DNA from: Coriobacteriales bacterium
GTDB lineage: Bacteria > Actinomycetota > Coriobacteriia > Coriobacteriales > QAMH01
Length of the DNA: 64,000 nt
Assembly (NCBI GenBank): GCA_050943615.1
Contig: JBMNPN010000002.1
Span: 224-64,223, forward strand
Direction: 5' to 3'
Shown here: positions 6,361 to 24,593 of the stretch, one piece after another
How the letters are laid out: every line of letters starts with the position of its first letter
Numbering within the stretch: the stretch's first letter is position 1
Made by a program: the position numbers and the translations under genes
Notes under the pieces: model-generated
What the model saw: only the letters and a program-made list of their open reading frames with translations
Database searches by the model: none
What the model was told of the DNA's origin: nothing

Positions 6361-7581
6361 TCACAGCGAGAGCGCGCGCACTTGCTCGTCGCTCAAATCG
6401 ACCGCGAACACGTTCTTGAAGTAGTCGCGCACGGCCTGCTCCATGTCGAGGGAAATCAGCTCGGGGTAGAGCAGGTCGCACATCCACTCCATCCCGAGCA
6501 GGCAATTGACCCCGTTGGGGTCGGTGAGCCAGTTGAAGGGGGTCATCGGCACCGCCCGATAGGCACCCGACCTCACGGCATCAAGCGACGCATAGTATTC
6601 GGCCAGCGTGCTGTCCAAGCTGCTGCTCGCGTCCTTGCCTGCGCGCATCTTGTCGAGCTGCTCGACAAAGCCTGGCGGGGCCACGATGAAATCGGGGCTC
6701 ATCCCGAGCCCCGCGTACTCCGCGACAGAGTACCCGTTTTGCCCGGGAATGAGCGTCGCATCGTTGCTTTCGTAGCCGACGTTTTCCGCCTCGGCGGGCT
6801 CGGGGATGGCATTGAGGGCGCCCGCAAAGTGCAGGCTGTAGGCGTAGGGCTCCTTGAACGACGCGGCTTGTGTGCCCTTATCGTCCATGACGAAGAGCAC
6901 GCGCTTGGCCGTGTCATCGGAAAGGCGCGCGCGCACGGAGGCAAGGTTGTCGATGACGTCCTGGCAGTAGCTCGCTGCGGTCTGCGAACGCGCTCCCCTT
7001 CCAAAGAGGCGCCCCATACGGCGCAGAGTGTTGGGAATCTGGTCGAAGTGGCCGCCATAGCAGATGACGGGAATGCCGAGATACGCCTGCAGCTCGTCAA
7101 GCAGCTGGGTGTGCTCGGAGTTCTTTCCGTAGGTGTGCAGGCTCAAGATGAGCTGCGTGTTAGTGGACTCGAGCCATTGCTTGCTCGTTCCGTCGGCGCT
7201 GATTTCCGGGTGAACGGCAGTCGAGCCAAGCGCCGGCGGAAAATACGACCGCGCCTGCTCGCTCGAGCTGGATTGCATCAGCCCCGAAATGATTTCGGGC
7301 GCAAGCGCGATGCTGAGAAGCTCCGAGGATTCGTCGAGAAAGGCGACGTGCTCGAGGCGGTCCGGCTGGGGGACATCAATTGAACGTCCGAGGTAGTCCG
7401 TGATCTGCGTGTCTCCGGTGCTCATGCGCGTTCCTTCCGCGACGAAGGGCGGCAGTGCAGAGCCTGCCAGAATCGCGACGGGAACGATCATGCCCATTCT
7501 CCTGAGAAAGTCCCGGCGGGAAAGGTCGCCTCCGCCGTCGCGTGGTGCAACCTCTATGCTATCCGTCTGCACGCCGCTCAT
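6361..7581 (-). CDS. Tat-exported ABC substrate-binding protein (Fe-siderophore/B12, helical-backbone class)
   Basis: SRRDFL twin-arginine motif; ITDYLGRSIDVP..LEHV and C-terminal VPMTPFNWL..P...LLGMEWMCDLLYPE typical of BtuF/FhuD-like SBPs. Confidence 0.8.
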   Translation of the reverse strand: MSGVQTDSIEVAPRDGGGDLSRRDFLRRMGMIVPVAILAGSALPPFVAEGTRMSTGDTQITDYLGRSIDVPQPDRLEHVAFLDESSELLSIALAPEIISGLMQSSSSEQARSYFPPALGSTAVHPEISADGTSKQWLESTNTQLILSLHTYGKNSEHTQLLDELQAYLGIPVICYGGHFDQIPNTLRRMGRLFGRGARSQTAASYCQDVIDNLASVRARLSDDTAKRVLFVMDDKGTQAASFKEPYAYSLHFAGALNAIPEPAEAENVGYESNDATLIPGQNGYSVAEYAGLGMSPDFIVAPPGFVEQLDKMRAGKDASSSLDSTLAEYYASLDAVRSGAYRAVPMTPFNWLTDPNGVNCLLGMEWMCDLLYPELISLDMEQAVRDYFKNVFAVDLSDEQVRALSL

Positions 7582-8759
7582 GCCCGGCCTCCTTTCGTGC
7601 CGCTGTTGCCGGGAGAGGCACCGCCCGTCGCAGCGTCTTCGTCGGCAAACACGCCCTTTGCGGCTTTCTCGATGCTCTCGAGCAGCTCGGCTCGGCTGCT
7701 GATGCCGAGCTTTGCGTACCCGTGCTTTGCATGCGTGTTCACGGTGTTGCGAGAGACCGTCAACTTCTCCGCGATGCGCGTGCGCGTGTCGCCATAGGCA
7801 ATCATCTCGACGATCTCTTCTTCGCGCCCGGTCAAGCCGAAGTGTTCGGAAAGGGCACGACAGCCGTCCCTGAGGCTGTTCTCCTTGTTGATTTTGTACT
7901 GCGCCTCGATATAGGAGGTGTCGGGAGTGGGCACGGCAAGCGGCTTTTTAAAGATCGCGTCCTTTCTGCAGACGAGACGCATGCTCACGAGCACGACCGC
8001 GAAGACAAGGCTGGAGCACAGCATGCACACCAGCCAACCGCCCAAACTGGTGTAGGGGTAATCGTAGAGGTTTGCGAGCAAGACGCAGGCCATCGCGAGA
8101 GAGACCGCGCACAAGATGCCGAGAACCACCAAGAAGGCGTCGCTTTTTGCGACGGCGCCTTCCGGTGAGTTGTCGATGACGCGCCATGCAAGGCTCCACA
8201 TGGCAAGCGCGAGGGTGGCAAAGCCCATCGCGGCGGGTACGAGAAAGAACGCAGCCCACGTCGCCGCGCCCTCGGGAACGGCGAAGATGGGAACGAACAG
8301 GGCAATGGGCGTCAAATGGAGCAGGCGCAGGGGCCACGGCGTGTTCAGGCGCATTCCGTTGTCGACGAGCGCCTGCAACGTCACGGGAAACAGCGCCACT
8401 TCGATGAGGGCGAGAAAGATCCACAGCAGCATGAACGCGATCTGGCTTCGGTGATACCAGAGCAGCCATGAGCAGAAAACCGTGGCAACGATCACAAGCA
8501 CGAGCGTCACCGTACCGATAACGAGCCAAAAGGGCGTCTTGATAAGAGAGGACATCGGCGGGAGCTGCGCCGGGCGCCGGAACGCGACGAAAGCCCAGGC
8601 AATGCAGGCAAAGCCCACCACGCGCGCGAGCAGCGAGGCGAGCGGCTCGCTGTACAGCGCGACGAGCGAAACTGCCACCCAGACGAGAAAGCCCGCAAGA
8701 GCGACGCGAACCTCGTTTGCGGAGAGCTTCCGCGAGTCTTTTTTGTGAGCTTTCGGCAA
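7578..8759 (-). CDS. transmembrane LuxR-family transcriptional regulator
   Basis: About 8 hydrophobic helices then LTGREEEIVEMIAYG..IAEKLTVSRNTVNTHAKHGYAKLGISSR (LuxR HTH); TTG start with GAAGGA RBS. Confidence 0.9.
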   Translation of the reverse strand: MPKAHKKDSRKLSANEVRVALAGFLVWVAVSLVALYSEPLASLLARVVGFACIAWAFVAFRRPAQLPPMSSLIKTPFWLVIGTVTLVLVIVATVFCSWLLWYHRSQIAFMLLWIFLALIEVALFPVTLQALVDNGMRLNTPWPLRLLHLTPIALFVPIFAVPEGAATWAAFFLVPAAMGFATLALAMWSLAWRVIDNSPEGAVAKSDAFLVVLGILCAVSLAMACVLLANLYDYPYTSLGGWLVCMLCSSLVFAVVLVSMRLVCRKDAIFKKPLAVPTPDTSYIEAQYKINKENSLRDGCRALSEHFGLTGREEEIVEMIAYGDTRTRIAEKLTVSRNTVNTHAKHGYAKLGISSRAELLESIEKAAKGVFADEDAATGGASPGNSGTKGGRA

Positions 8760-8782
8760 AAAATTCCTTCCGGAAAAGAAAT

Positions 8783-8801
8783 ATCACCGCAGGGTGGTGA
8801 T
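8783..8801. promoter_or_regulatory. palindromic operator copy 1 (ATCACC-GCAGGGT-GGTGAT)
   Basis: Lies in the 79-bp gap between the divergent luxR and permease genes; same motif at 12227 and 16287. Confidence 0.75.
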
Positions 8802-8838
8802 GGCATTCTCTCTAGCCGCATCTGAGAATAGTCGCGCT

Positions 8839-10146
8839 ATGAAGCATCTGTCAAAACACAATTCCGAACAAGAGGAATCTCTTTTCGTGGATGGCGAAGA
8901 AAGCCTTCGCCCTCCCTCCGTGCGCCTCGATGGCACGGGGCAGGCACCTGCCGACTCCGCCGTCGCGCCCACGGGCGATGCCCCGGCCCGCAGGCCCATG
9001 GACCCGCGGGCACGCAAGGTCGTCATCTTGCTGATCGTTTTTCTTGCCGTGCTCGTGTTCGCGCTGTTCATGCCCCATAACGCCGCGACGATTGCGTTTA
9101 CCCCGGTCCCCAGCGTGCACTTGTCCTCTCCCGCGGAGTTTACCCGGGCACTGCAGGAGCGCGCGGGGCAGGTGTTTTCCGCGCTCTCTCTAGATGCGGA
9201 CTTCATGTCCTATTCGGCGATCACCACGGTTTTCGTGGTCATGCTCACGGGTGCGGGGCTGAGCCTTTCGGGCGCGGTCTATCAAGGCGCGTTCAGAAAC
9301 GCGCTTGCCTCTCCTTCCACGTTCGGCGTGATGGGAGGCGCTCTGGTTGGATTCGGCATCTTCGAGCTTTGGGATGCCCCTGCTGATGAGAATTTCGGGG
9401 GCTTCTCATGGGGCCTCGTTTTTGATTACTACGATCCGATTCAGCACCTGTGGTACCGATTCATGCCCTGCGTTTTCAGCTTCGTGTTCGCGATGCTGAC
9501 GGTTGCAATCGTGCTGCTCGTGGTAAAGAAGAGCGGGTCTTCGCGTGATTCGAAGGTCTACACCGTGGTCGTGGGGCAGCTGGTCGCTGCCGTGTGCACG
9601 GGCATCTACAACTGCATCAAAACCTATTACTGCCGTGTCGATCCCTATGGCAGTCGAACCGGCGTTCTTCGCAATGCGCAGGCCTCGGTTTTTGGCGGCA
9701 CGCTTGACCTGTTTGCCCTCATTGGCATTGCCGTGCCCATGGTGCTCATCATCATCTTTGCCATGCGCAACAGCCGAAAGCTCATGCTGCTCTCCTTTGG
9801 AGACAAGGAAGCGCAGAGCATGGGCATTGCCTCCGACAGCCTGCGCATCGGCGCTATCGTTGCCTGCACCGCTCTCACCGCGCTCATCGTGGGGTTCTGC
9901 GGTCCCATCGGCTTCGTGGGCTTTTTCATCCCGCATGTGACGCGCAAGCTCGTCGGGCCGGTCTTCACGTACTTCTTGCCGGCAGCGATGCTGATGGGCG
10001 GGGCCTTTACCATGGGCGTTTACGCGATAACGGCGTACTTCTCGAATACGAGTATGGCGGGGCCTGCCATCTCGCTCATTGGGGCCGTCGCCTTCTTCGT
10101 GGTCGCGCTGCAGCAAAGGGGGAGCCGTCATGGCGATTGGGTCTGA
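8839..10146 (+). CDS. FecCD/BtuC-family ABC permease
   Basis: GAGLSLSGAVYQGAFRNALASPSTFG and LSFGDKEAQSMG...GPIGFVGFFIPH motifs. Start moved to ATG 8839 because the track start overlaps the operator. Confidence 0.9.
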   Translation: MKHLSKHNSEQEESLFVDGEESLRPPSVRLDGTGQAPADSAVAPTGDAPARRPMDPRARKVVILLIVFLAVLVFALFMPHNAATIAFTPVPSVHLSSPAEFTRALQERAGQVFSALSLDADFMSYSAITTVFVVMLTGAGLSLSGAVYQGAFRNALASPSTFGVMGGALVGFGIFELWDAPADENFGGFSWGLVFDYYDPIQHLWYRFMPCVFSFVFAMLTVAIVLLVVKKSGSSRDSKVYTVVVGQLVAAVCTGIYNCIKTYYCRVDPYGSRTGVLRNAQASVFGGTLDLFALIGIAVPMVLIIIFAMRNSRKLMLLSFGDKEAQSMGIASDSLRIGAIVACTALTALIVGFCGPIGFVGFFIPHVTRKLVGPVFTYFLPAAMLMGGAFTMGVYAITAYFSNTSMAGPAISLIGAVAFFVVALQQRGSRHGDWV

Positions 10147-11389
10147 AGAGACTAAAGGGTCGGCAATTGCCACGCGGGGCATTGGCTACGAGCGCGTCGA
10201 TTCGCTGCGCGCAGAGGAGCGGCGTAACCTGCGCCGTCGCTGCCTTACCTGCGTGGTCGTCACCGCGGTACTGGCCGTGCTCTCGCTCAACATCATCGCG
10301 CACCTTTATTCCGGCACGATTATCGATGCGCCTTTCATCGGGTATATCGCCAACCCTGCCGTCGTGGTGCTCTCCTTGCAGCAGGCGCTCCATAACATCA
10401 TTCCTGTGTTCCCGGAGGTTGATGCCCAGAACTTTGCCTCGGTGCTAGCCAATTCGAGCATCAGCAACCTCGATTTCGGGAATACGACCGATACTCTCAA
10501 TATGTATGCTTGGTATGAAGGAGAGCGCGTCACCACGATCATCCTCACGCTCCTTTGCGGCACATTGCTTGCGCTTTCGGGCATGCTGTTCCAGAACGTC
10601 TTCAAGAACCCCATCGCCACCCCGGCCATGCTCGGCGCGCAAAGCGGCATGACCCTGGGCGTCATGCTGTTCGTCTCCATCTTTGGCTTTTCGGTGGGGA
10701 TATACTCCTTTCCCCGCTACGCCCTGAGCTACGGTTGCGCCCTCGTCATCTTGGCTGCCGCTTTTGCCGGCGCCAAGTTCATCAGCGGCAAGCGCCCGTT
10801 TTCCGTCGTGGACCTGCTCTTGGTGGGCGCGGCGCTCGGTGCTATCGCGAACACGATTGTGCAGTACGCACCGCTTGGGTGGGACGAGGGGAAGTGGTCG
10901 GAGTTCTTCGCTCTTTCCGAGTCGGTTGCGACCGATACCTCACCCGTTGCCTGGATATCGGTGGGTGTTGCGTGCCTGGCGGGAATCGTGCCCATCTATC
11001 TGCTGCGCTTCCAGCTCAACATGCTCGCCTTCGACGACCTCGAGGTGCGCATGCTGGGGGTCGACCCCTCGCGCCTGCGCATCATCTGCCTGCTCTGCGG
11101 TTCTCTCATGACGCTCGTCTCGATCGTGACCTGCGGGCTTGTTGCCATGGCGGCGCTCGCGGTGCCTTTCCTCACACGCTATCTCTTTGGCACCGAGGCA
11201 CGTGAGCAGTTCTGGGGCAACCTGTGCCTGGGGCCGCTTGTCCTGTTGGTATGCCGCGACGTGACGGACTTGCTACAGATGGCTTTTTTCCAGCTCCAGT
11301 ATGGCCTCACGCTCGGCACCGTCGTCTCAGTGCTCGCGTTGCCGCTGGTCATCGTCCTTGCACGGGGCGAGGCGCGGGGGTGGTCATGA
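10130..11389 (+). CDS. FecCD/BtuC-family ABC permease
   Basis: LALSGMLFQNVFKNPIATPAMLG and LNMLAFDDLEVRMLG motifs; ATG 10130 overlaps the upstream gene end. Confidence 0.9.
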   Translation: MAIGSEETKGSAIATRGIGYERVDSLRAEERRNLRRRCLTCVVVTAVLAVLSLNIIAHLYSGTIIDAPFIGYIANPAVVVLSLQQALHNIIPVFPEVDAQNFASVLANSSISNLDFGNTTDTLNMYAWYEGERVTTIILTLLCGTLLALSGMLFQNVFKNPIATPAMLGAQSGMTLGVMLFVSIFGFSVGIYSFPRYALSYGCALVILAAAFAGAKFISGKRPFSVVDLLLVGAALGAIANTIVQYAPLGWDEGKWSEFFALSESVATDTSPVAWISVGVACLAGIVPIYLLRFQLNMLAFDDLEVRMLGVDPSRLRIICLLCGSLMTLVSIVTCGLVAMAALAVPFLTRYLFGTEAREQFWGNLCLGPLVLLVCRDVTDLLQMAFFQLQYGLTLGTVVSVLALPLVIVLARGEARGWS

Positions 11390-12174
11390 TGCGCCTTTCC
11401 GTGAGCAACGTGGCGGTGGGCTACGACCCGCAACACCCCCTTCAGACCGGCATCACCTTCGAGGCAAAGGGCGGCGACGTCTTTTGCATCCTGGGCCCCA
11501 ATGGCTGTGGCAAGACGACGCTGTTTCGCTCGATTGTGGGCGTGCAGCCGCTGCTCGAGGGCAAGGTGCTGGTGGACGATGAGGACATCACGGGCTGGAG
11601 CGCCGATCGCATCGCCCATGTCGCTGCCTACGTTCCGCAGAAAAACCGCCTCGAGTTTCCCTACAAGGTCAAAGACATCGTCATGCTCGGGCGTTTCATC
11701 CATGTTCTCGGGCGCTTTTCCATGCCGGGGCGCGAGGACTACGCCATCGTGGAAAACGCCCTCGACATGCTCGGCATCTATCACCTGCGCAACCGGTTCT
11801 ACACAGATCTTTCCGGTGGCGAGCTGCAGATGACGATGATTGCCCGCGCGCTCGCACAGGAGCCGCAGATCCTCTTTTTGGACGAGCCGACAAGTGCTCT
11901 CGACTTTGGTGCGGCATCCACGGTCATCAAGAGCATCCGACACCTCGCGAGCCTGGGCTACACGGTGGTCATGACCACGCACAGCCCCAATCACGCGTTT
12001 CTCTGCAATGCCAAGGTCGCGCTGCTGCGTGCCGATGGTCCCGCGACAGTGGGGGACGCGCGCGACGTGATCACCGAGCCGAACATGAAGCGCTCGTACG
12101 GTGCCCACGTCAAGGCGGTCGAGTACGTGGACCGGCAGGGCAAGGTTATGCGCGTCTGCGTTCCCAACATGTAG
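11386..12174 (+). CDS. FecE/BtuD-type ABC ATPase
   Basis: GPNGCGKT, LSGGELQ, FLDEPT, TTHSP; ATGA overlap with the permease stop. Confidence 0.93.
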   Translation: MMRLSVSNVAVGYDPQHPLQTGITFEAKGGDVFCILGPNGCGKTTLFRSIVGVQPLLEGKVLVDDEDITGWSADRIAHVAAYVPQKNRLEFPYKVKDIVMLGRFIHVLGRFSMPGREDYAIVENALDMLGIYHLRNRFYTDLSGGELQMTMIARALAQEPQILFLDEPTSALDFGAASTVIKSIRHLASLGYTVVMTTHSPNHAFLCNAKVALLRADGPATVGDARDVITEPNMKRSYGAHVKAVEYVDRQGKVMRVCVPNM

Positions 12175-12226
12175 GAGCGGAAAGCGCGATGGCAGGTCAT
12201 CGCCGTTTTCGGGCTGTTTTGCAAAT

Positions 12227-12245
12227 ATCACCACAGGATGGTGAT
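12227..12245. promoter_or_regulatory. palindromic operator copy 2 (ATCACC-ACAGGAT-GGTGAT)
   Basis: Upstream of moxR; followed by TTGAAA (12245-12250), 18 bp, then GATAAT (12269-12274). Confidence 0.75.
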
Positions 12246-12342
12246 TGAAAAATCGCTTCTCGCGCGTGGATAATCCGCCAAAGAAGCTAGTGGAAACTCG
12301 AGTGTTTCAGGCGCGAAGAACTCGAACAAGAGGGAAGGTCAA

Positions 12343-13419
<1,077 letters not shown>

Positions 13420-13422
13420 CAT

Positions 13423-14766
13423 ATGGAGCTCGCGCTAAAAAATCCGGTAAGGCTGGTCAGGCCAAAGCGCACAGAGAAGTCGGCCATCGAAGCCGATTTT
13501 GCGCAGGTTGCCGCCGAGCGCACACGCCGGCGTGCCTTCATCCAATCTGTCATTAGAAAAGTTCTGGCCGTCGCGCTGACGCTCGCGGTGTGCGTGCTGA
13601 TGTGCGTCTACGTGAACAATCCCTTCGGGTACGTCCCGCTCGTGCTCGTCATCCTCGCCGTCGTGGCGGACTTTGCCTGTGTCCAGGTGCTCTCGCGCCA
13701 GGTCACGTGGCGGCAGGAGTCACGTGTGGGGGACTGCCCCCGCGGCGAGGACATCGACTTTCGCATCCGCGTGAGCAACCGCAGCATCCTGTTCATGTTC
13801 CACGCACGGGCGCACTTCTTTGTGAGCGACCTCTTTGGCGGCCTTGCGATGGACAACCCCGCAGACTTCGTGCTCGGCCCCTTCGAGAGCCGCGACTTCG
13901 ACATCACCGTGAACTTCAAGCACCTCGGCACCTACACTGCCGGCATCGACCGTATCGAGTTCTTTGGCTTTCTGGGCCTGTTCGTGCGCACGGTAGAGGG
14001 CGGCAACCGTGCGGAGGTCCAGGTCACGCCCACCATCCACAGCATCGAGCGCATCGGGTTTTCCACGGACACGCCCTCCGAATCCAGGGTGGCGCTCAAG
14101 ACGGTCGCCGATGACTCCATGGACTATTCGGGTGTGCGCGAATACCACCGCGGCGACCCGCTCAAGCGCATGCACTGGGCGCTTTCGGCCAAGGGGAACA
14201 AGACGCTCTATACCAAGATCTACGAGACGCCCACCAATCCCGGTGTTGGCATCATCCTCGACTTTGCGGGGCCGTCGGGGCTCACCGCAGATGAGCTGGG
14301 CGGCATGTTCGACACGGTCGTGGAAAGCGCGTTTTCCATCAGCGAATACGCACGCGGCATCGGCCTCGAGGTGGAGCTTGAGTTCATCGACCGCTTTGGC
14401 ACCGCGGTGCGCAAGAGCAGCTGGAAGCGCGACGAGCTCGCAGAGCTCGTCGATGATATGCCCCGCATGCAGCCCGGTGGCGAGAGCCATCAGGCAGCAG
14501 AGCTCGTCAATTCGGAGGCGCATTCCATGTACGCGCAGGGAAACATCGTCATCTGCACGGCACTTCCCAGCGCCGAGATCGTGGACGCTGCCATCGCCGT
14601 CAAGATCGGCCGCCGCAACCCGGTCGTGGTGCTCGCGATTCCCGAGGGCCTCTCCGAACGCGAGCGCATTGCGTGGTGCGCGCCGCTCGAGCGGCTCAGC
14701 GCAAGCGGCATCGGCTATACGGTGCTCGACAGCCCCGATGCGATCGGCAAGGTGAACGTGGCATGA
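13423..14766 (+). CDS. DUF58 domain membrane protein
   Basis: Two N-terminal TMs; GVREYHRGDPLKRMHWALSAK DUF58 signature; follows moxR. Confidence 0.88.
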   Translation: MELALKNPVRLVRPKRTEKSAIEADFAQVAAERTRRRAFIQSVIRKVLAVALTLAVCVLMCVYVNNPFGYVPLVLVILAVVADFACVQVLSRQVTWRQESRVGDCPRGEDIDFRIRVSNRSILFMFHARAHFFVSDLFGGLAMDNPADFVLGPFESRDFDITVNFKHLGTYTAGIDRIEFFGFLGLFVRTVEGGNRAEVQVTPTIHSIERIGFSTDTPSESRVALKTVADDSMDYSGVREYHRGDPLKRMHWALSAKGNKTLYTKIYETPTNPGVGIILDFAGPSGLTADELGGMFDTVVESAFSISEYARGIGLEVELEFIDRFGTAVRKSSWKRDELAELVDDMPRMQPGGESHQAAELVNSEAHSMYAQGNIVICTALPSAEIVDAAIAVKIGRRNPVVVLAIPEGLSERERIAWCAPLERLSASGIGYTVLDSPDAIGKVNVA

Positions 14767-16286: not shown

Positions 16287-16305
16287 CTCACCACAAGGTG
16301 GTGAT
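16287..16305. promoter_or_regulatory. palindromic operator copy 3 (CTCACC-ACAAGGT-GGTGAT)
   Basis: About 300 bp upstream of the lipoprotein gene; same GCAAAT 5' flank as copy 2. Confidence 0.72.
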
Positions 16306-16598
16306 TGTTTTCACGTTCATTTCGAGCCAAAAATAGACTCGCTTTCGAATGGATATTTCACAAGAAAGTGACTGCCAATGTTGATCAGGCAGCCCAGCAA
16401 CAACTTTTTAGGTGCGGGGAAGGTGTTTACATGAATTTGAAATGCATTTGTCCAAGGCGGTGTGGCCGGAGAGTGTTGCCATGCCGCCTATTCGTTTATT
16501 GCTTATTTTCGCCTAATCATTAAGTTCCCGTAGCTGTCATTGCCGCGGAGGTGCTTCTACCCAACGCCTTCCGCTGGCGGAAAGAAGATACCTGCTCC

Positions 16599-18740
16599 AT
16601 GCCGTTGCGCAAAGGACATAGCAAACACTCGCGCTACCTGCGCGCGCTGATGGCGGCGCTGCTCGTCGTCGCGGCGGCGTGCGCGCTCCCGGCGTGCAAG
16701 TTCTCCGACACGATCGCCGAGTTCGTGCCCGACATGGCCGCCGCCGTCGACACCACCATGCCCCACGTGGACAAGGCGGACACCGACGGCAAGCAGGACA
16801 CCCAGGGCGCCGCCCAGCACAAGTCCGGCGAGGAGGACACGAGCGACATCGCCGCCGTCGCATACGACCCGGACGCCGAGGACAGCAAGTTCAAGTCAGC
16901 GAAGGTCGAGTACGACGCGGAGCAGGCCCAGACCGACACCCAGCCCTCCGCGGGCGGGGAGAAGCGCGCGGAGGAGAAAGACACTTCGGGGCTGAAGTCG
17001 CAGAAGACCGCGGGCGGGAAGTCCGGCGAGGACGGCTCGGGCTCCGGCTCGGGCGGAACGGGCTCCGGTAACGGCGGGGACGGCGGCGACGGCGAGGGCA
17101 AGGGCGCCGGCTCGGGCTCCGGCTCTGGTAGCGGGAGCAGCGAGCAGGCCGCCCCATCGGTGTCCCAGGACGAGGACGACGACAATAAGACCGAGGTGCC
17201 GAGCGGCAAGCGCATCGCGGCGACCGGCGAGACCGCCAACATCGTCCAGATGCTCACCGGCGAGCTGCGCAAGGAGCAGCTCGACGCGGGCCAGGAGGGC
17301 GACTACCTGGTCGCGACGGACGAGGCCTTCCAGGACGGCGTTGCCTCCGCCGGGGTATACCCGGGGGAGGGGGTCGACGAGGCGGTTCTGGGCTGGAAGC
17401 GGAAGAACGGCACCGAGAAGGGGGGCGTCGACGTCGAGGCGCTCAAAAAGGCCAAGGTCGACCTCGTCGTCTACGAGTCGAACACGGCCACGCTCACCGA
17501 GAGCGACGTCGACGCCCTGGGGGAGGCCGGCATCAAGGTGCTCGCCGTGAGCTCGCTCACGCAGGACAGCGACATCTGCGATGCCGTCGAGCAGGTCGCA
17601 GAGGCGCTCTCCAAGGGGGCGGGCGCAAAGGCCAAGAAGGCGATCTCCTCCAAGGCGGCCTCGTGGGAGGACTTCCACGACGGCCTGCTGAACTCGGTGA
17701 CGCGCCTCAACGACGGCTGGAGCGTGGCGTACGCCCACAACACACACGACGACAAGAGGTTCGTTGGCTACGACTTCGACTGGGTCTCCACGGCGAAGAA
17801 CGCCACGGGCGACCACAAGCTGACGCTCGTCTGCCCGCGCGTCGTCTCGGTGGGGAGCTACCCCTCCCTCGAGAAGCTCGGGTACAGCCTCGACACCCTC
17901 CTCGCGGTGCCGAAGAGCTGGTTCGCCTCGCCCTGCTACCACTACCTCTCGGCCGCGGGGGTCGTGGACAACGCCCAGTGGCTCCAGCTCGCCAAATGGG
18001 TGCGTATTATAAAATCTGAAGTAGCACACGGCCGGCTCGTGGAACACAACCCCTACGCCATCGACGACAGCTCTTGGTCCTACTCGATTTCCCCCTCGCG
18101 CTACCGTGTCGTCGTCCCGGTGTTCACGCGCGGAGAATCGTCGAGCGTCAGGGCGTCCTCCGGCCTCGAATCGGGGGAGTCGCTCGACTTCAGTCTGAAT
18201 ACCTATGGCTATGTGCAGGTTGGCGACCTTCCCAGCTACGTGATGGGGAACTACTGCATCGAGCCGTATGTGGACTGGGAAAATTACTCGTTGCACACTA
18301 TTCGCAACATAGAGGATGTGGAAGACGACAGCTACTTCCTGGGGTCCGACCACTTCCCCGCGGTGGTGGTGGAGACGGAGGAACAGAAGGAGTCCGTGCA
18401 GGCGGCGCAGGATGACAGGACGAGCATGTACTGGTTCGCCGACAACCTCAGGGAGTGGAGGCAGCTGTACACGGACGGGTCCTCATCGTCGGAAAAGTTA
18501 GATGCAATGAACCCCAACGCGTCCCTGCTCGCCGGGAAGTTCGACGTCTACGTCGCCCCGAGCGGCGTGCTCGGGTCGTGGCTCGAGGGCGGCTCGCACG
18601 AGTCGTTCCTGCTCTCCGCCTGGGCGCGCAGCGCCTACTACGGCGACTACTCGTCGAGCAAGGCCCAGGCCAAGGCGAGAAGCTACTACGGGGAGTTCTA
18701 CCGGGCCGAGGGCGCCGCGCCGGACATGGGCAGAGGCTAG
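16599..18740 (+). CDS. lipoprotein with long Gly/Ser linker and SBP-like domain
   Basis: Signal with lipobox LPAC; low-complexity GSG linker; KRIAATGETANIVQML, KAKVDLVVY and C-terminal YVAPSGVLGSW resemble helical-backbone SBPs; paralog of 60019-61902. Confidence 0.7.
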   Translation: MPLRKGHSKHSRYLRALMAALLVVAAACALPACKFSDTIAEFVPDMAAAVDTTMPHVDKADTDGKQDTQGAAQHKSGEEDTSDIAAVAYDPDAEDSKFKSAKVEYDAEQAQTDTQPSAGGEKRAEEKDTSGLKSQKTAGGKSGEDGSGSGSGGTGSGNGGDGGDGEGKGAGSGSGSGSGSSEQAAPSVSQDEDDDNKTEVPSGKRIAATGETANIVQMLTGELRKEQLDAGQEGDYLVATDEAFQDGVASAGVYPGEGVDEAVLGWKRKNGTEKGGVDVEALKKAKVDLVVYESNTATLTESDVDALGEAGIKVLAVSSLTQDSDICDAVEQVAEALSKGAGAKAKKAISSKAASWEDFHDGLLNSVTRLNDGWSVAYAHNTHDDKRFVGYDFDWVSTAKNATGDHKLTLVCPRVVSVGSYPSLEKLGYSLDTLLAVPKSWFASPCYHYLSAAGVVDNAQWLQLAKWVRIIKSEVAHGRLVEHNPYAIDDSSWSYSISPSRYRVVVPVFTRGESSSVRASSGLESGESLDFSLNTYGYVQVGDLPSYVMGNYCIEPYVDWENYSLHTIRNIEDVEDDSYFLGSDHFPAVVVETEEQKESVQAAQDDRTSMYWFADNLREWRQLYTDGSSSSEKLDAMNPNASLLAGKFDVYVAPSGVLGSWLEGGSHESFLLSAWARSAYYGDYSSSKAQAKARSYYGEFYRAEGAAPDMGRG

Positions 18741-18806
18741 CGGCCCCGGGCCCTTCATGTACAGGACCATGTCGATAACCGTGCAAGTTTGATGAGGACA
18801 TATATT

Positions 18807-21800
18807 ATGGAGATTCAAAGTACGTATAGGCAAACAGAAAATCGGAGAAGGTGGAAAGCTGCCTTCTGGGCTCTTGCCGCCGCGGCATTCGCGGCACTCG
18901 CCTTCCTTCCGCTGAGCGCTCTTGGAGATACGTCGCAGGTGATCAAGGTTGGCGCTTCCGAGTATTACAAGACGCTGTCGGACGCTGTTGCCAGCGCTGC
19001 CGGTGACGAGAACAACCAGAATGTCACCTTCCAGCTCACCAGCGACGTCTACCAGGGCACGAAGCAGGTGGACGTCAATCTTCCCGCTGGGGCAGAGTGG
19101 ACCATCGACCTCGGCACCCACACCCTGAGCACGGACAACAGTAAATCGGGTACCACATCGCTTGTCTCGGTGACCCACGTGGCCGCCGAGGAGGGCACGG
19201 ATACCCCGGGAACCCTGAATATCGTCGGCGATTCAAGTGTCAAAGGCACAATCTCCTGCACCGATGCGGCACCAAAGTATGCCGTGCAAGTAAGTTCCAA
19301 CAACGTCGTCAACATGAGTAACGTCGCCGTGAATTTCGACTCGTCGAAAACGAGCGGTATCAATGGCTTGTATATAAGCGGTACAACAACGGGAAACGCG
19401 GTGCTCAATGCGGACAGCTGTGCGTTTACTGTAAAGAACTCGTATATTAATGCAGAAAATGGTAATGGCGGCAGCGCATTTTGTGCCCGAGTTGGCAGTA
19501 ACACCACAGCAAGCTTCTCGCAGTGCTCGTTCACTGCCGAGGCTACAGCAAACGCTTACTGTGTTTATGGAATCAAGGGAATATCTGTCAAGCTCAGCGG
19601 GGCAAACACCCTTTCAACCTCTGCGACTTCCGAATATGCGAACAATTCTGTTCCAATTTATGTGTCCTCTGGTGCTGACAGCCTGGTCCTCGAAAACCAG
19701 GAGGGCTCATCAAACGGTATCAGCTTCTTCATCTCGAACGAGAGCACCGAGCCAGCAGCGGTTTCTGCAGCGATACGACTTCCTTCCAATGACGCCCCTA
19801 CGACCCTAAACGCGCCTTTATCGATTTGGCACAGCTCCTCGACGCAGGGCTTTGTGGGGATGACGGGGTGCAGCACGAAAAAGACAATATACGTTGGCCC
19901 CAATTTCTCCGTCGTTTCGCAGGCAGAGAAAGCCGGCGGCACCTGGGACAGCACCTTGGACATCGCGCGCGATGACACCTATGACACCTATGTCGATGGC
20001 GCTCGCTTTGCCCGCGCAACCGCAGCGGGGGTTTCCCTCGCGGACAAGGCGGGGTATTTCAAGCTGATGAACTCGGCATGGCTCGAGGCGAGCGCCAAGG
20101 AGGACAGCGAGGACGCGACAATTCAGGCGCTCTATTGGACTGCGGTTCCCCAGACCGAACCCGAGGCAGTTATCGGAGATGTAGAGTACACGACGCTTGC
20201 GGATGCGCTTGCCGCAAAGAAGGACGGGGACGTGATCAAGCTCGGTCGCGACATCTATCTTGCAGAATCGATTAGCTTCACCGACTCCGAGGGCGAGACG
20301 AGTCCCACCTACACGCTCGATCTGAACGGACATGACATCGTCTGCACGACCCGCATCGCCCCGGTCCTCAACTACTCAGGCTCCGGCACGCTCAATATCG
20401 TCGACAGCGTGACGAACGCGGACTCTGCCGCCGCGGTCGCGCACACGATCACCGACGCGACTTCCCCGAACGGGTACTGGACGGCAACAAGCAGCTCGAA
20501 GTATAAGACCCTGCAGCAATCAGCCACCCTCGTGAACTCCGGCACCGGCACGCTCCAGGTTTCCGGCGTGCGCATTCATGGCACCTTCAACTGCATCTAC
20601 AACTCGGGGGAAGGCTCCACGAGCGTCGAGAACTGCAAGGTGGAGCAATCAGACAACGTCAAGTACTCGAACACCAAGAACCATGTGTTCTGGGGCAGCA
20701 ATATCACGGCGACGAACAACGCAGTGGTGGTAAATTCATACAGTGCATCTTATACTGCATATAGTCAAGCTGGTAGCGGTATCAGTACTTTTGGCACGCG
20801 TGTGTTCAGCGGGACCAACATCAAGGTCTACGGGGGCAGCTACCAGTTCGATTCCGAGAATTACTACCTGAGCAGCGCCATTTTCGACGGTACCGCGGGA
20901 AACGACATCTCTATCGACGGGATCATCTCCTACGACCTGGGCGGCAGGATCGACACTGTGGACTTTGGCGGCGGCGGTGCCACCGACGGCAAGTTCACGA
21001 CGCGTATGTCCGCGTGGTTCTTGGGCTTTGATACTACCACTAGTACGATCTATAACACTAAAGCGCCCCAATCCCTCAAGCTGGGCGCTAACTTCAAGCC
21101 CACGGATATGAGCGGCAATGCACAGCCGGTTGAATTCTATACTGATCTCAGTGCTAAAGGATTGAGTTCCTATTCCCTCAAATCGTATCGCGGGGCCGTG
21201 GTCTTCGAGCCGATGGAGGGAGTGGACCTTCAGTCAAGCTACGGCGACGAGCTCTCCGATCTGCTGGTGGACACGGCGGGAAACTACACGCCCGTCATCG
21301 AGGACGGAAACATCTGCTGGAGCAGCACGTACCATGTGCGCGCCTATGGAGCAGCTTTCTCGAAGCAACTGAGCGGAGCCGGTGTCTATCTTTCGTTCAC
21401 CGAACGGTACAACCCGACGGGCACCAACGCCGTCTATTACCTGAACCCCACGAGCGTCGATGCCGATGCTGAGGGCAAGGTGACGTTCACGTTGCCCGAG
21501 ACGGTATCCGGGACCGAGGAGGGAGTCTCGCTCGTGCCGGAAGACGCCCACGGCACGCATGTCGAGTGGACCGGCAAGTGGTTCGTCTCGAAAGAATGGC
21601 TCAGCGAAAATACGTTGAAGAACACCGTAGAAGACGATTTTGACTACGAGGGAGCTGGATATCTGCTCGTCGATGCCGGCGAGAGCATCTCGATCGACGA
21701 GGACGACATCGACCAAGATATCTATATCTGGCCTCAGATCAAGCACACGCAATATCCCTACTACCTCTCTTACGAGCTGAACGGCGGGGACGAGGCGAGT

Positions 21801-23576
21801 ATCGCCAATAACACCGCTGAATTCACGGTGCCGTACGGTAGCCCTAGTTCCATTCAAGCTACTATGACATATGCCGGCAAGGAAGTCGGCGACGGTTCCT
21901 GGACCCTCGACGATCCCACCCGTGTGGGCTACACCTTTGACGGCTGGTACCTCGACAAGGATTTCACGACCAAGGTCGCCAGCGTTGAGACGCTTTCTCA
22001 ATACTATGCTCTCACGACGTCGTCCGATAGGTACATAGGCATCGACGACAGCACGGTCTATGGCAAGTACACGTACGAGGATTCGCAGGCCAAGAAGCCG
22101 GCGGCCACGCTCTACGCCAAGTGGAAGATCGCATCGCTCGACCTCTCCAATACCAGCGTGAAGCTCGTCAACGACAACACCACCTACGACGAGGCTACTG
22201 ACACCTACCTCACCCCCTACGTGGGTTCCGAGATCGAGCCCAAGCTCGAGGTCACCTACACCGACCCCGCGACGGGCGAGTCCGGTCCCGTCGAGCTCAC
22301 GGCCGGCGAGGACTACACCATCGACTACGGCGACGCCGACCTGTTCAAGAACCTCGGCACCTACACGCTCACCATCAAGGGCACGGGCACGGAAGGAAAT
22401 GGCTGCTACAACGAGACCACGCTGAAGGTCGAGATTGTCAAGGGCACGCTCGAAATTGACGTTCCTGCCGAGAGCGTCTCGCTCTCCTACGGACAGGCCC
22501 CATCGAACCTGGGCGTCACCGCGAGCGACGAGCACGTCACGCTGCTCTACAAGTCGAGTGACACCTCCGTGGTGACCGTCGACGATGATGGCAACGTGAC
22601 GCCGGTGAGCACCGGCAAGGCGACCATCACCGTCTATTCCGACGACGAAAACTACGAGCCAGTCAGCAAGGAGATTGCCGTCACGGTAACCAGCGAACGC
22701 GACACCTCCGTGGGCACGACGACGCTGGTGAACGACGGGGCGGCCAGCGGACTCTACCTCGTTACCGGCGAGGACACGCTCACGCTGGTCAAGTCCACCT
22801 CCGATGCGAGCGCGATCGGGGTCAACACCGTCACGATCGACGGGCACACCTGGAAGGTGACTGCCATTGCCGACGGTGCCTTTGCGGGTAGCAAGGCCAA
22901 GACGGTCACGATTGGTAGCAACGTCACGTCCATCGCCTCCAAGGCATTCAGTGGTGACACCGCGCTCACGAGCGTGACCATCGGCTCCAACGTCACGAGC
23001 ATTGGCGCCAGCGCCTTCCAGGGCTGCACGGCTCTCAAGACCGTCAAGGGCGGCGCGGCTGTCAAGACCATCGGCGCCTCCGCTTTCAAGGGCTGCAAGA
23101 AGCTCACGAGCATCACGATCGGCTCCAAGGTGACGAGCATCGGCAAGAGCGCTTTCCAGGGCTGCACGTCTCTCAAGACCGTCAAGGGCGGCGCGTCCGT
23201 CAAGACTATCGGCGCTTCCGCCTTCAAGGGCTGCAGCAAGCTTTCCACCTTCAAGGTCACGGCCACGTCCAAGAAGCTGAAGACCATCGGCAAGAACGCG
23301 TTCTCCGGAGCCAAGAAGCTCAAGAAGATCACGGTCAAGTCCAAGAAGCTGAAGACCATCGGCAAGAGCGCGTTCTCTGGTGCCAAGAAGCTCAAGACGC
23401 TCACGATCAAGTCCAAGAAGCTCACCAAGAAGTCCGTCAAGGGCTCGCTCAAGGGCTCCAAGGTCAAGACCGTGAAGGTCAAGGTTGGCTCCAAGAAGCT
23501 GAACAAGAAGTACGTCAAGAAGTACAAGAAGTTCTTCTCCAAGAAGAACTGCGGCAAGAAGGTTGCCGTCAAGTAA
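18807..23576 (+). CDS. giant secreted surface protein (beta-helix-like N-terminal domains, Listeria/Bacteroides-type repeat, Ig-like domain, BspA-type LRRs, Lys-rich tail)
   Basis: Signal peptide; two Y.TL.DA...LDL.GH modules; YELNGG..PTRVGYTFDGWY; KSSDTSVVTVDDDG; repeated VTSIGASAFQGC LRRs; GAGGA RBS before ATG 18807. Confidence 0.8.
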   Translation: MEIQSTYRQTENRRRWKAAFWALAAAAFAALAFLPLSALGDTSQVIKVGASEYYKTLSDAVASAAGDENNQNVTFQLTSDVYQGTKQVDVNLPAGAEWTIDLGTHTLSTDNSKSGTTSLVSVTHVAAEEGTDTPGTLNIVGDSSVKGTISCTDAAPKYAVQVSSNNVVNMSNVAVNFDSSKTSGINGLYISGTTTGNAVLNADSCAFTVKNSYINAENGNGGSAFCARVGSNTTASFSQCSFTAEATANAYCVYGIKGISVKLSGANTLSTSATSEYANNSVPIYVSSGADSLVLENQEGSSNGISFFISNESTEPAAVSAAIRLPSNDAPTTLNAPLSIWHSSSTQGFVGMTGCSTKKTIYVGPNFSVVSQAEKAGGTWDSTLDIARDDTYDTYVDGARFARATAAGVSLADKAGYFKLMNSAWLEASAKEDSEDATIQALYWTAVPQTEPEAVIGDVEYTTLADALAAKKDGDVIKLGRDIYLAESISFTDSEGETSPTYTLDLNGHDIVCTTRIAPVLNYSGSGTLNIVDSVTNADSAAAVAHTITDATSPNGYWTATSSSKYKTLQQSATLVNSGTGTLQVSGVRIHGTFNCIYNSGEGSTSVENCKVEQSDNVKYSNTKNHVFWGSNITATNNAVVVNSYSASYTAYSQAGSGISTFGTRVFSGTNIKVYGGSYQFDSENYYLSSAIFDGTAGNDISIDGIISYDLGGRIDTVDFGGGGATDGKFTTRMSAWFLGFDTTTSTIYNTKAPQSLKLGANFKPTDMSGNAQPVEFYTDLSAKGLSSYSLKSYRGAVVFEPMEGVDLQSSYGDELSDLLVDTAGNYTPVIEDGNICWSSTYHVRAYGAAFSKQLSGAGVYLSFTERYNPTGTNAVYYLNPTSVDADAEGKVTFTLPETVSGTEEGVSLVPEDAHGTHVEWTGKWFVSKEWLSENTLKNTVEDDFDYEGAGYLLVDAGESISIDEDDIDQDIYIWPQIKHTQYPYYLSYELNGGDEASIANNTAEFTVPYGSPSSIQATMTYAGKEVGDGSWTLDDPTRVGYTFDGWYLDKDFTTKVASVETLSQYYALTTSSDRYIGIDDSTVYGKYTYEDSQAKKPAATLYAKWKIASLDLSNTSVKLVNDNTTYDEATDTYLTPYVGSEIEPKLEVTYTDPATGESGPVELTAGEDYTIDYGDADLFKNLGTYTLTIKGTGTEGNGCYNETTLKVEIVKGTLEIDVPAESVSLSYGQAPSNLGVTASDEHVTLLYKSSDTSVVTVDDDGNVTPVSTGKATITVYSDDENYEPVSKEIAVTVTSERDTSVGTTTLVNDGAASGLYLVTGEDTLTLVKSTSDASAIGVNTVTIDGHTWKVTAIADGAFAGSKAKTVTIGSNVTSIASKAFSGDTALTSVTIGSNVTSIGASAFQGCTALKTVKGGAAVKTIGASAFKGCKKLTSITIGSKVTSIGKSAFQGCTSLKTVKGGASVKTIGASAFKGCSKLSTFKVTATSKKLKTIGKNAFSGAKKLKKITVKSKKLKTIGKSAFSGAKKLKTLTIKSKKLTKKSVKGSLKGSKVKTVKVKVGSKKLNKKYVKKYKKFFSKKNCGKKVAVK
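23011..23286 (+). repeat. 138-bp intragenic tandem duplication (two LRR pairs)
   Basis: GCGC(C/T)TTCCAGGGCTGCACG..CTCAAGACCGTCAAGGGCGGCGCG starts at 23011 and 23149. Confidence 0.8.
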
Positions 23577-23789
23577 GACAAGGTAATCGTCCCGGCTTTC
23601 ACGCCCCGTCCTCCCTGGGGCGTGGCCGGGTTGCCGATTGACGAAGCCGGCCCCGCGGGCACTGAACTGCTTTCGCGGGGCCGACGCTTTGTTTTTCGAT
23701 TCGCCTGCAGCGCGGGTTCGTGCGGGTGCTGCCTGAGCGCAACGCCGGCACGAGGCCGCGCATACGTGAACGAGGAGGTTCGCCAAAGC

Positions 23790-24593
23790 ATGAAATTGAG
23801 AGCCGAGAACCTGGACGTGGGGCATGACTTTCGCCACGTGGTGCAGCGCGACATCTCCTTTGAGGTGGAAAGCGGCGAGGTCTGCTGCGTGCTCGGTCCC
23901 AACGGGTGCGGCAAGACGACGCTGTTCGATACGATGCTGGGGCTGTTGGCCCCGCGCTCCGGCCATGCGTACCTCGAGTTCGACGACGGAACCAAGCGCG
24001 ACGTGCACCAGATGAAGCCCGAGGAGCGCGCTCAGGTTCTCTCTTACGTGGCACAGCACCATCAGCCGCCGTTCCCCTATGCCACGCGCGACGTGATCGA
24101 GATGGGGCTCGTGGACCGCATACTTGCGGGAGGCACGCCGACCGAAGATGAAGAGCAGCTCGTGGACGAGACCATGGAGGAGCTTGGGATTTGGGAGCTG
24201 CGCGATGAGCCGTACACGCAGCTATCCGGCGGCGAGCTGCAGCTCACGATGATCGCCCGCGCCCTCGTGCAGCGCCCGCGCTTCGTCTTTCTGGACGAGC
24301 CGACCGCCGCGCTCGACTACGGCAACGAGATCCGCGTCATCGAGCAGGTGAAGCGCCTCGCGGAACGCGGCATGGGCGTGCTCATGACCACCCACAATCC
24401 CGATCACGCCTTTCTGCTGGATGCCAACGCCGTGCTGCTCGGCAAGGACTTTCCCATGGTCGCGGGCAGCTGCTGGGACGTGCTCACCGACAGCGCCATG
24501 TGCGCGGCCTACAAGACCGAGGTGTACCGCGTGCAATTCGAGCGCCTCGATGGCGGTCGCATGTACGTCTGCGTCCCCGACCTCGGGGACTAG
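23790..24593 (+). CDS. second FecE/BtuD-type ABC ATPase
   Basis: GPNGCGKT, LSGGELQ, FLDEPT, TTHNP; GAGGAGG upstream of ATG 23790. Confidence 0.9.
   Translation: MKLRAENLDVGHDFRHVVQRDISFEVESGEVCCVLGPNGCGKTTLFDTMLGLLAPRSGHAYLEFDDGTKRDVHQMKPEERAQVLSYVAQHHQPPFPYATRDVIEMGLVDRILAGGTPTEDEEQLVDETMEELGIWELRDEPYTQLSGGELQLTMIARALVQRPRFVFLDEPTAALDYGNEIRVIEQVKRLAERGMGVLMTTHNPDHAFLLDANAVLLGKDFPMVAGSCWDVLTDSAMCAAYKTEVYRVQFERLDGGRMYVCVPDLGD

Follow-up and report, generated by a model that had tools for sequence, protein, structure and literature searches.

The 64,000-nt stretch of Coriobacteriales DNA analyzed here (contig JBMNPN010000002.1; hereafter the window) carries two paralogous cassettes in which a FecCD-type ATP-binding cassette (ABC) importer stands together with genes for a MoxR AAA+ ATPase, a DUF58 protein and a DUF4129 membrane protein. 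Surveys of other genomes found this combination as one conserved unit in Coriobacteriia and Clostridia, and importer and triad very probably constitute a single functional system. To judge from genomic context in relatives, its cargo is most likely molybdenum or tungsten (Mo/W) rather than iron, haem or B12.

Gene content and conservation of the cassette

Cassette 1 spans window positions 6361-24593, where the open reading frame (ORF) listing and Pfam returned all eleven genes in the order and orientation of the original prediction, an earlier reading of this DNA. They include several substrate-binding protein (SBP) candidates, one with a twin-arginine translocation (Tat) signal, and proteins with transmembrane (TM) segments:

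6361-7581, minus strand: class III SBP-like protein with a Tat signal (Tat-SBP), 406 aa; Tat motif RRDFLRR, C-terminus matching PDB 4pag, a 'periplasmic binding protein' (E 2.7e-10)
7578-8759, minus strand: membrane LuxR-type regulator (TM-LuxR); eight predicted TM segments (hydropathy) and a C-terminal GerE/LuxR helix-turn-helix (Pfam E 4e-12)
8839-10146, plus strand: FecCD permease 1 (perm1); Pfam FecCD (PF01032) E 3e-41
10130-11389, plus strand: FecCD permease 2 (perm2), the heterodimer partner; Pfam FecCD E 8e-36, subfamily motif [FY]Qx[VA][FY][KR]NP[IM]A
11386-12174, plus strand: ABC ATPase 1 (abc1); Pfam ABC_tran (PF00005) E 8e-28
12343-13419, plus strand: MoxR-proper AAA+ ATPase; AAA_3 E 2e-61, AAA_lid_2 E 1.5e-21
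13423-14766, plus strand: divergent DUF58 protein; Pfam DUF58 (PF01882) 13.9 bits, below the cut-off of 23.4; 36% identical to the cassette-2 DUF58 over 421 aa
14763-16202, plus strand: DUF4129 membrane protein, TgpA-like; DUF4129 28.3 bits against a cut-off of 24.8, TgpA_N weak at 18.5 bits against 30
16599-18740, plus strand: lipoprotein SBP (lipoSBP), 713 aa; lipobox, ~190-aa low-complexity linker, ~530-aa class III SBP-fold domain (predicted model)
18807-23576, plus strand: giant surface protein, ~1590 aa; Pfam LRR_5/BspA E 4e-53, Big_2 and Flg_new
23766-24593, plus strand: second ABC ATPase; ABC_tran, 39% identical to abc1 and 46% to the cassette-2 ATPase; gene call also in a twin contig from the Joint Genome Institute (JGI)

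Junctions within perm1-perm2-abc and within moxR-duf58-duf4129 are overlaps or gaps of 3-4 nt (the start of abc1 overlaps the perm2 stop by 4 nt, and duf58 begins 3 nt past moxR), and gaps of 168, 396 and 210 nt set the blocks apart. The Tat-SBP and TM-LuxR genes, divergent from perm1, overlap each other by 4 nt. Both permeases have charged, K/R-containing cytoplasmic N-tails of ~40-70 aa according to hydropathy and charge distribution; that of perm1 is ~60 aa long, and its first outside loop is enlarged. The distant PDB matches of perm1 are FhuB, HI1471, HmuU and BtuC, the NCBIfam models nearest to abc1 are haem, corrinoid and F420-0 type ATPases, each below its cut-off, and the signature LSGGELQ is found in both cassette-1 ATPases. 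NCBIfam holds no model for five cassette components, and no characterised family in it reaches its cut-off.

Cassette 2, a paralogue on the minus strand (window 48883-64000), consists of a seven-gene operon running from 59582 down to 48883, with junctions that overlap or are at most 9 nt, and of two further genes on the plus strand, one encoding an SBP-like protein of a family that we call X:

56073-59582, minus strand: surface protein with a C-terminal TM anchor, 1169 aa, first gene of the operon; assigned by hydropathy and family clustering (family Y, see below)
54764-56068, minus strand: FecCD perm1; Pfam E 7e-52
53485-54783, minus strand: FecCD perm2; Pfam E 7e-39
52675-53484, minus strand: ABC ATPase; Pfam E 8e-32
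51695-52708, minus strand: MoxR; AAA_3 E 1e-63, ORF overlapping the end of the ATPase gene
50325-51686, minus strand: DUF58 protein; PF01882 23.9 bits against a cut-off of 23.4
48883-50325, minus strand: DUF4129 membrane protein; PF13559 E 3.6e-5
60019-61902, plus strand: long-linker lipoSBP, divergent from the operon; 33% and 22% identity to the cassette-1 lipoprotein, 590 bits with the family hidden Markov model (HMM) built here
61984-64000, plus strand: wall-anchored SBP-like protein of family X, running off the window end; E 1e-89 with the family HMM built here
47210-48763, minus strand: PucR-type regulator just downstream of cassette 2; HTH_30 E 5e-18

A tie between the PucR-type regulator and cassette 2 is possible. 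Identity between the two window copies is 58% for moxR, 51% for abc, 41% for perm2, 36% for duf58, 34% for perm1, 33% and 22% for lipoSBP and 27% for duf4129, the ATPases being the best-conserved parts and the SBP and DUF4129 protein the least.

Conservation was surveyed in both directions. The forward survey ran the DUF58 profile against one genome per GTDB species and fetched the best 79 of at least 494 relatives; six-frame ORFs of the loci were scored with HMMs built from the cassette proteins, and the stretches fetched from relatives in the surveys are numbered L001 and onwards. The DUF4129 gene came next in 72/72 DUF58-anchored loci having 1.5 kb downstream, and perm1 and perm2 were both present in all 53 having 5.5 kb upstream. 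In the reverse survey, anchored on the perm2 motif in 429 relatives, duf58 and duf4129 lay downstream in 50 of the 51 loci having 5 kb on that side; in the remaining one (L146) moxR-duf58-duf4129 is divergently adjacent. Removal of duplicates left 106 distinct cassettes, of which 43 are well-flanked (6 kb or more on each side). In these the four core genes are universal (43/43), and moxR occurs in 38, abc in 36, lipoSBP in 31 and family X in 29. Gene order is permuted while content is kept (L001, L070, L146), which argues for functional linkage rather than inherited synteny. Linkage beyond chance is also indicated by the second window copy, an operator common to the cassette-1 blocks (below) and the occurrence in other genomes; together the duplicate cassette, the operator and the surveys (53/53 and 51/51) rule out chance adjacency of importer and triad. 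The same counts bear out the proposal, made in the original prediction, that the FecCD importer and MoxR/DUF58/DUF4129 form one conserved unit, since the genes are kept together elsewhere.

The Coriobacteriia carriers are Eggerthellaceae, Adlercreutzia, Senegalimassilia and Slackia, and the Clostridia carriers are Anaerovoracaceae including Zhenpiania hominis, Oscillospiraceae, Christensenellaceae, Lachnospiraceae, Eubacteriaceae and Thermoanaerobacterales. Coriobacteriia-type cassettes also appear in 'cleanbin' metagenome-assembled genomes (MAGs) titled Akkermansia, Agathobacter, Methanomethylophilaceae, Sphaerochaetaceae, Melainabacteria, Bacteroidaceae and Prevotella (L009, L011, L012, L014, L019, L021, L084 and others); in our judgement these titles reflect binning or labelling errors, and they were excluded from the taxonomy. 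The cassette family has been strongly expanded by duplication. A Clostridiales MAG (JAJQEU01, L064) holds three tandem cassettes within 21 kb, and a Coriobacteriaceae assembly (CAYQLX01) has seven cassette-bearing loci.

A shared operator and the regulator beside it

Comparison of the intergenic regions brought out a 17-bp palindrome, TCACCRCARGRTGGTGA, that precedes all three cassette-1 blocks, at sites given here without strand:

8784-8800: operator-like palindrome 1, TCACCGCAGGGTGGTGA, in the divergent LuxR/perm1 region
12228-12244: operator-like palindrome 2, TCACCACAGGATGGTGA, upstream of moxR and abutting the -35 hexamer of a promoter-like site at 12245-12274
16288-16304: operator-like palindrome 3, TCACCACAAGGTGGTGA, 295 nt upstream of the lipoSBP gene

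Three matches occur in 64 kb against 0.02 expected, and 0/100 shuffles gave three. The promoter and terminator scan did not exceed its shuffled controls and was used only for the -35-like hexamer beside palindrome 2. A common palindrome before the three blocks is direct evidence, at the level of sequence, for co-regulation of importer genes, MoxR triad and SBP/surface-protein block in the window organism. It has no copy in the 241 fetched loci and is therefore specific to that organism; the AT-rich divergent region of cassette 2 (59583-60018, 436 bp) holds no copy either.

Most simply, the regulator acting at the palindrome would be the divergent TM-LuxR. The Tat-SBP has no Pfam match, and by profile comparison it resembles the lipoSBP family only weakly (hhalign probability 31%); its membership of the transporter is not borne out. 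It is co-transcribed with TM-LuxR (4-nt overlap) and is not conserved beside other cassettes, so it is more likely part of the sensor; judging from these sequence relationships, it is probably a ligand-sensing partner of TM-LuxR and not a transport SBP.

This pair also lends itself to a mainly sensory reading of the entire cassette, in which the SBP-like proteins and the transporter-like module would signal an outside cue instead of supplying the cell; signalling that depends on SBPs is known elsewhere. We consider such a role very improbable, as complete importer gene sets with ATPase are conserved and the regulators are not (LuxR-like genes stand near 1/43 well-flanked cassettes), and as riboswitch control and MoeA adjacency, described below, fit supply and not sensing.

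Proposed adaptors and engines, and the surface proteins

Hydropathy and charge distribution give the cassette-1 DUF58 protein a K/R-rich N-tail, a TM hairpin and a ~355-aa cytoplasmic domain, which we take to be vWA-like. The subfamily motif VREY..GDP..K..W is invariant in the alignment, and the position of the metal-ion-dependent adhesion site (MIDAS) reads D-F-A-G-P in cassette 1 and D-F-T-A-P, D-L-A-V-P or similar in the other members, none of the five having the DxSxS serines. With these serines lost, a chelatase-like metal step is not supported, and we rejected a chelatase-like MIDAS step on account of the degenerate site. The DUF4129 protein is laid out as seven TM segments, a ~105-aa variable low-complexity outside loop, TM8 and a 120-aa K/R-rich cytoplasmic DUF4129 domain; Transglut_core has no match in either window DUF4129 protein, and the loop occupies its place. 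PDB sequence and profile searches returned nothing meaningful for DUF58 or DUF4129, the presenilin matches being confined to the low-complexity loop and taken as chance. The weak NCBIfam matches of MoxR are chelatase subunits.

Four well-flanked cassettes are without either ATPase, and each has a fuller cassette in the same assembly (L033/L011, L034/L143, L042/L017 and L045/L010); elsewhere abc and moxR often relocate together (L047, L070, L073). In Adlercreutzia equolifaciens DFI.6.87, one of the two cassettes has ATPases and the other has none. The DUF58 and DUF4129 proteins would be cassette-specific adaptors, and the ABC and MoxR ATPases engines that can be shared.

Pfam, NCBIfam and PDB sequence or profile searches gave no match for the cassette-1 lipoSBP. 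Its AlphaFold2 (AF2) model (predicted local distance difference test, pLDDT, 78; predicted template-modelling score, pTM, 0.84) matches BhuT, RhuT, HmuT, YiuA and BtuF in Foldseek with probability 1.0 and E values of 2e-5 to 1e-3. The lipoprotein thus models as a class III SBP fold, the kind serving FecCD transporters, in keeping with its earlier reading as a long-linker SBP. At E<=1e-3 the family numbers 355 representatives among 1.84 billion; the listed members are nearly always ~550-735 aa long, with the domain beginning ~125-275 residues in. Even a profile of 40 sequences left word-indexed homologue searches nearly empty, at 4 matches for the DUF4129 protein and 3 for the lipoprotein.

Clustering of large ORFs without assignment across the loci produced two families, X and Y. 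The proteins of family X share a ~500-aa domain for which Pfam, NCBIfam and PDB sequence searches gave no match. Behind it come wall anchors that differ by lineage (SLH, choline-binding repeats, fn3 and Cu_amine_oxidN1, with leucine-rich repeats (LRRs) in the window member), and public records name these proteins after their anchors only. In cassette 2 the X protein has a Sec signal, a ~460-aa domain modelled as a class III SBP fold, the LRR and a Lys-rich tail. Its AF2 model (pLDDT 75, pTM 0.82) matches FepB-like 4mo9, YiuA, MhuP, SirA and CeuE at E 6e-6 and weaker, and family X accordingly models as a second, wall-anchored SBP of class III fold. By hhalign it is not linked to the lipoSBP family (probability 6%), and only the predicted folds connect the two. 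A surface-to-membrane relay of the kind first envisaged is plausible, now with a second wall-anchored SBP-like protein found in the family.

The giant protein fared differently. Its layout in cassette 1 is a signal/TM segment, ~1000 aa of beta-rich sequence without a domain assignment, Flg_new, Big_2, BspA-type LRRs and a Lys-rich tail, and its LRR and tail are 46% identical to the C-terminus of the cassette-2 X protein. The same module on two different proteins looks like the surface-anchoring device of this lineage. Giant partners vary among cassettes, being family Y, LRR or fn3 proteins or none detected; family Y takes in giant proteins whose genes immediately precede perm1, as seen in 20 related loci, and the 1169-aa window protein belongs to it. 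The proposal that the giant LRR protein is the receptor was not borne out, given partners so variable and a tail that looks like an anchor.

A gene for a SurA_N-like protein (a PrsA/SurA-type chaperone) stands between the surface-protein and SBP genes in ~17 Coriobacteriia cassettes (for example L034 3767-4891 and L140 5304-6473) and is absent from the window. The triad could on this account serve the giant surface proteins by folding, anchoring or quality control, with an unrelated importer merely in the same operon. A giant protein gene is present in many cassettes, in L004 a 915-aa fn3 protein follows DUF58 and DUF4129, and service of this kind to an fn3 protein has been proposed for the Bifidobacterium PFNA cluster, which combines fn3, MoxR, DUF58 and transglutaminase (PMC8430577). 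We nevertheless think this unlikely: the permeases are invariant (53/53 and 51/51) and the giant proteins variable or not detected, duf58 directly follows perm2 in satellite cassettes, and topology prediction puts the globular domains of DUF58 and DUF4129 in the cytoplasm, apart from the surface proteins. The L004 contig, moreover, begins inside duf58, so permeases may have stood upstream.

Probable cargo, proposed mechanism and relation to known systems

Rfam scans of the window and 45 loci found the molybdenum/tungsten cofactor (Moco/Tuco) riboswitch RF01055 on the cassette strand before the first gene of seven cassettes (L026, twice, L039, L050, L068, L070, L135 and L142), and beside the cassette on the opposite strand in L063 and L072. 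MoeA lies within ~11 kb of 15/43 well-flanked cassettes, in both phyla, and the Eubacteriaceae MAG L135 has in one row the riboswitch, lipoSBP, a giant gene, perm1, perm2, abc, a methyltransferase, moxR, duf58, duf4129, X and MoeA. MoeA inserts Mo/W into the pterin. The P3 stem is missing (Tuco-type) in L026, L039, L050 and L135 and present (Moco-type) in L068, L070, L063 and L072, and its absence or presence tracks the use of tungsten versus molybdenum cofactor (Regulski 2008, PMC2408646). The two opposite-strand copies (L063 1215-1355, minus strand; L072 260-395, minus strand) are aimed away from the cassette at a short Arg/Lys-rich ORF of doubtful reality. There is precedent for a type II importer that carries molybdate, MolBC-A (PMC4031551). 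In Eubacterium limosum P3-less Tuco riboswitches precede two 'Fe ABC-type' operons, one of which is up-regulated under W limitation (PMC11725836). The earlier view that the substrate could not be read from sequence is thereby corrected, as riboswitches and MoeA in relatives, not in the window, point to Mo/W.

The E. limosum authors themselves read their Tuco-controlled operons as iron transporters (PMC11725836), and the cassette could be a classical iron-complex, haem or corrinoid importer with the triad as an accessory, its riboswitches coordinating the supply of iron or another cofactor with the production of Mo/W enzymes. The FecCD proteins and ATPases resemble FhuB, HmuU, BtuC and haem/corrinoid ATPases, the SBP models are nearest to binders of haem, siderophores and B12, and many paralogues per genome are common for siderophore systems. 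All sequence matches to characterised families are, on the other side, far below equivalog cut-offs; there is no cobalamin riboswitch in the window or the 45 loci, and scans for Fur, IdeR/DtxR and ModE boxes gave no consistent sites upstream of the cassettes, the Fur/IdeR scan being a weak test. MoeA adjacency in 15/43 would be unexpected for an iron system, and derepression at scarce W (PMC11725836) would follow the logic of acquiring the metal that is sensed. An iron-type cargo is the less probable reading, with a doubtful though appreciable chance of being right.

For Mo/W uptake we propose the following mechanism. The core would be a type II (FecCD) ABC importer with heterodimeric permeases, whose genes are invariably accompanied by those for the DUF58 and DUF4129 membrane proteins. 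Outside the cell, ligand would be captured by class III SBP-fold proteins, of which one is lipid-anchored on a long flexible linker and the second (X) is wall-fixed in most cassettes by lineage-specific anchors, often with giant adhesin-like proteins alongside. X would hand the ligand to lipoSBP, from which the permeases would receive it, and the ABC ATPase would power translocation. The MoxR AAA+ ring, for which the original prediction supposed a part in assembling or energising the complex, may act through DUF58 on the importer/DUF4129 complex in assembly, remodelling or release of cargo at the inner face, and satellite cassettes may borrow generic ABC and MoxR engines in trans. The cargo would be a Mo or W species, oxyanion or complexed, bound for MoeA and pyranopterin cofactor synthesis. 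In cassette 1 the three units may be switched by one regulator, TM-LuxR, with the Tat-SBP as sensor. We infer the physical complex, the role of MoxR, the sharing of ATPases, the relay, the cargo and the identity of the regulator, and we give the full model, a type II uptake system with SBP relay, DUF58/DUF4129 adaptors, two ATPases and Mo/W cargo, a probability of about 0.5.

Several points weigh against it. Contact of MoxR, DUF58 and DUF4129 with the permeases is something we infer, and the DUF58 subfamily is without the MIDAS serines. The window has no riboswitch, RF01055 included, even at Rfam E<=5 (the only match there being a spurious one to mir-981), its cassettes have no adjacent MoeA, and 0/8 Coriobacteriia loci scanned together had a riboswitch, so that the Mo/W assignment there rests on homology of 25-40%. 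Many paralogous cassettes per genome, seven in CAYQLX01, suggest several cargoes rather than one, and the best structural matches of both SBPs bind bulky ligands (haem, siderophore, B12), not oxyanions. Kinship of the E. limosum operons with the cassette is conjectural; a scan with a single protein from the L135 MAG matched only its query.

By sequence and fold criteria the cassette is a type II ABC importer (FecCD, ABC_tran with LSGGE, and class III SBPs as modelled), and an exporter role was rejected, since SBPs and FecCD argue for import. With BtuCD-F, HmuUV-T/BhuUV-T and FhuBC-D it shares FecCD membrane domains, a cognate ABC ATPase and the class III SBP fold. In contrast to BtuCD-F, HmuUV-T/BhuUV-T and FhuBC-D, it pairs two permeases as a heterodimer, both with long charged N-tails, has two SBP-like proteins in each system, with SBP domains of 450-530 aa, and obligatorily includes DUF58 and DUF4129, plus MoxR. 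MolBC-A of Haemophilus influenzae (HI1470-72; molybdate/tungstate, PMC4031551) is alike in its FecCD permease, class III SBP and Mo/W connection, and HI1471 is among the best PDB matches. In MolBC-A itself, however, the permease is a homodimer, the SBP is small and periplasmic, and MoxR, DUF58 and DUF4129 are missing; the Mo/W connection of the cassette is regulatory and contextual and found in relatives only.

The MoxR-DUF58-TgpA triads of PFNA (PMC8430577) and Pseudomonas TgpA (PMC3507681) follow the same three-gene logic and order, in which a MoxR-proper ATPase and a DUF58 protein are joined by a polytopic protein whose N-terminus is TgpA_N-like and whose C-terminus is DUF4129. The cassette differs from them in having no transglutaminase core, a degenerate DUF58 MIDAS and a triad joined to an ABC importer; PFNA has the fixed order pkb2 kinase, fn3, MoxR, DUF58, tgm, whereas the window cassettes have no kinase and no fn3 gene by Pfam, and no phosphatase such as PFNA has. 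Bacillus yeaC-yeaD-yebA is presumably another MoxR-DUF58-TgpA triad. In the Isd, Hta and Shr haem relays, wall-anchored receptors pass ligand to a lipoprotein SBP and a FecCD permease. The resemblance is one of working principle, as the wall receptor of the cassette is itself SBP-fold; Pfam found no NEAT or HtaA domain in the ~1590-aa and 1169-aa proteins or in family X and Y members, and no sortase signal was seen in the window cassette proteins. BchI-BchD, CobS-CobT, CoxD-CoxE and NorQ-NorD are AAA+/vWA metal-centre machines, likewise pairing a MoxR-type AAA+ protein with a vWA-like partner in a metal-cofactor context; the cassette departs from them in a DUF58 without MIDAS serines, in having no chelatase substrate-binding subunit and in membrane partners that sit on a transporter.

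ModABC, TupABC and WtpABC are importers of type I, and their small SBPs belong to another structural class. Their permeases and SBPs have no homology to those of the cassette, and only the generic ATPase matches WtpC, far below cut-off. All three are typical Moco/Tuco riboswitch targets and neighbours of Moco biosynthesis genes (PMC2408646). In E. limosum fetABC1/2, a P3-less RF01055 stands before an 'iron-type' ABC transporter (PMC11725836), an arrangement that L135 shows together with MoxR, DUF58 and DUF4129. The defining features of TgpA, PFNA, Isd/NEAT and Mod/Tup/Wtp systems were looked for and are lacking, and the cassette is accordingly a member of none of these.

In full-text literature searches no paper brought MoxR or DUF58 together with FecCD and, the E. 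limosum note excepted, none placed such an importer in a Moco regulon, so this widely conserved cluster of gut anaerobes is apparently undescribed. It might represent, though we advance this only tentatively, a new class of trace-metal acquisition with MoxR as a second engine acting through DUF58/DUF4129 and a two-tier wall/lipid SBP relay, by which gut and sediment anaerobes scavenge complexed or otherwise unavailable W/Mo, with paralogous cassettes for different sources served by one ATPase pair. Eggerthellaceae and many Clostridia rely on large sets of Mo/W enzymes in the metabolism of drugs, polyphenols, aldehydes and short-chain fatty acids, and to our knowledge only ModABC, TupABC and WtpABC are recognised as suppliers of their metal. 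If our reading is right, a conserved system of 8-10 genes, seen in 106 cassettes, adds an unrecognised Mo/W uptake route and gives the widespread, enigmatic MoxR-DUF58-TgpA-like triad its first concrete functional context, and Tuco-controlled 'iron transporters' such as those of E. limosum should be looked at afresh. Independently of the cargo, the union of an ABC importer with obligatory AAA+-linked membrane partners would be mechanistically new, and it is testable in cultivable carriers such as Zhenpiania hominis BX12 and Adlercreutzia equolifaciens DFI.6.87.

Other genes recur beside the cassettes. A ~290-aa S-adenosylmethionine-dependent methyltransferase with a weak TehB-like match occurs in many Clostridia cassettes (L026 2734-3600, L050 7979-8857, L135 11595-12521, also L023, L028, L044, L142 and L157), and in Zhenpiania hominis a separate P3-less Moco-type riboswitch belongs to its gene. 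In L070 (14250-15245) and six further loci the cassette is directly followed by an SPFH/Band_7 gene.

The JGI twin (L161; metagenome 3300053716, contig Ga0534105_04158) corresponds to window 16498-28733 at 99.85% identity, differing by 12 mismatches and 6 small indels. Because of these indels the LRR gene (1613 aa in the twin) and the second ATPase gene are called with different ends, which points to frameshift errors in one assembly. Downstream of that ATPase, a palindromic hairpin (24745-24805), scored by Rfam as 'mir-981' on both strands but well below cut-off, is probably a bidirectional terminator closing cassette 1. Two paralogues without a Pfam match (24813-26189 and 38429-39472; 31% identity over 189 aa) flank pta, prfA, prmC and cydAB. 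Just upstream of cassette 1 lies a complete rRNA operon (16S 510-2016, 23S 2234-5209, 5S 5301-5416), followed by a NifU-like gene (5596-5964); many long ORFs within 510-5416 are spurious. In the one-per-species set, the best matches of the window leucyl-tRNA synthetase (LeuRS), from uncultured Coriobacteriaceae, Eggerthellaceae and Collinsella, reach only 61-65% identity, which places the host in a Coriobacteriia lineage without a close representative in that genome set.

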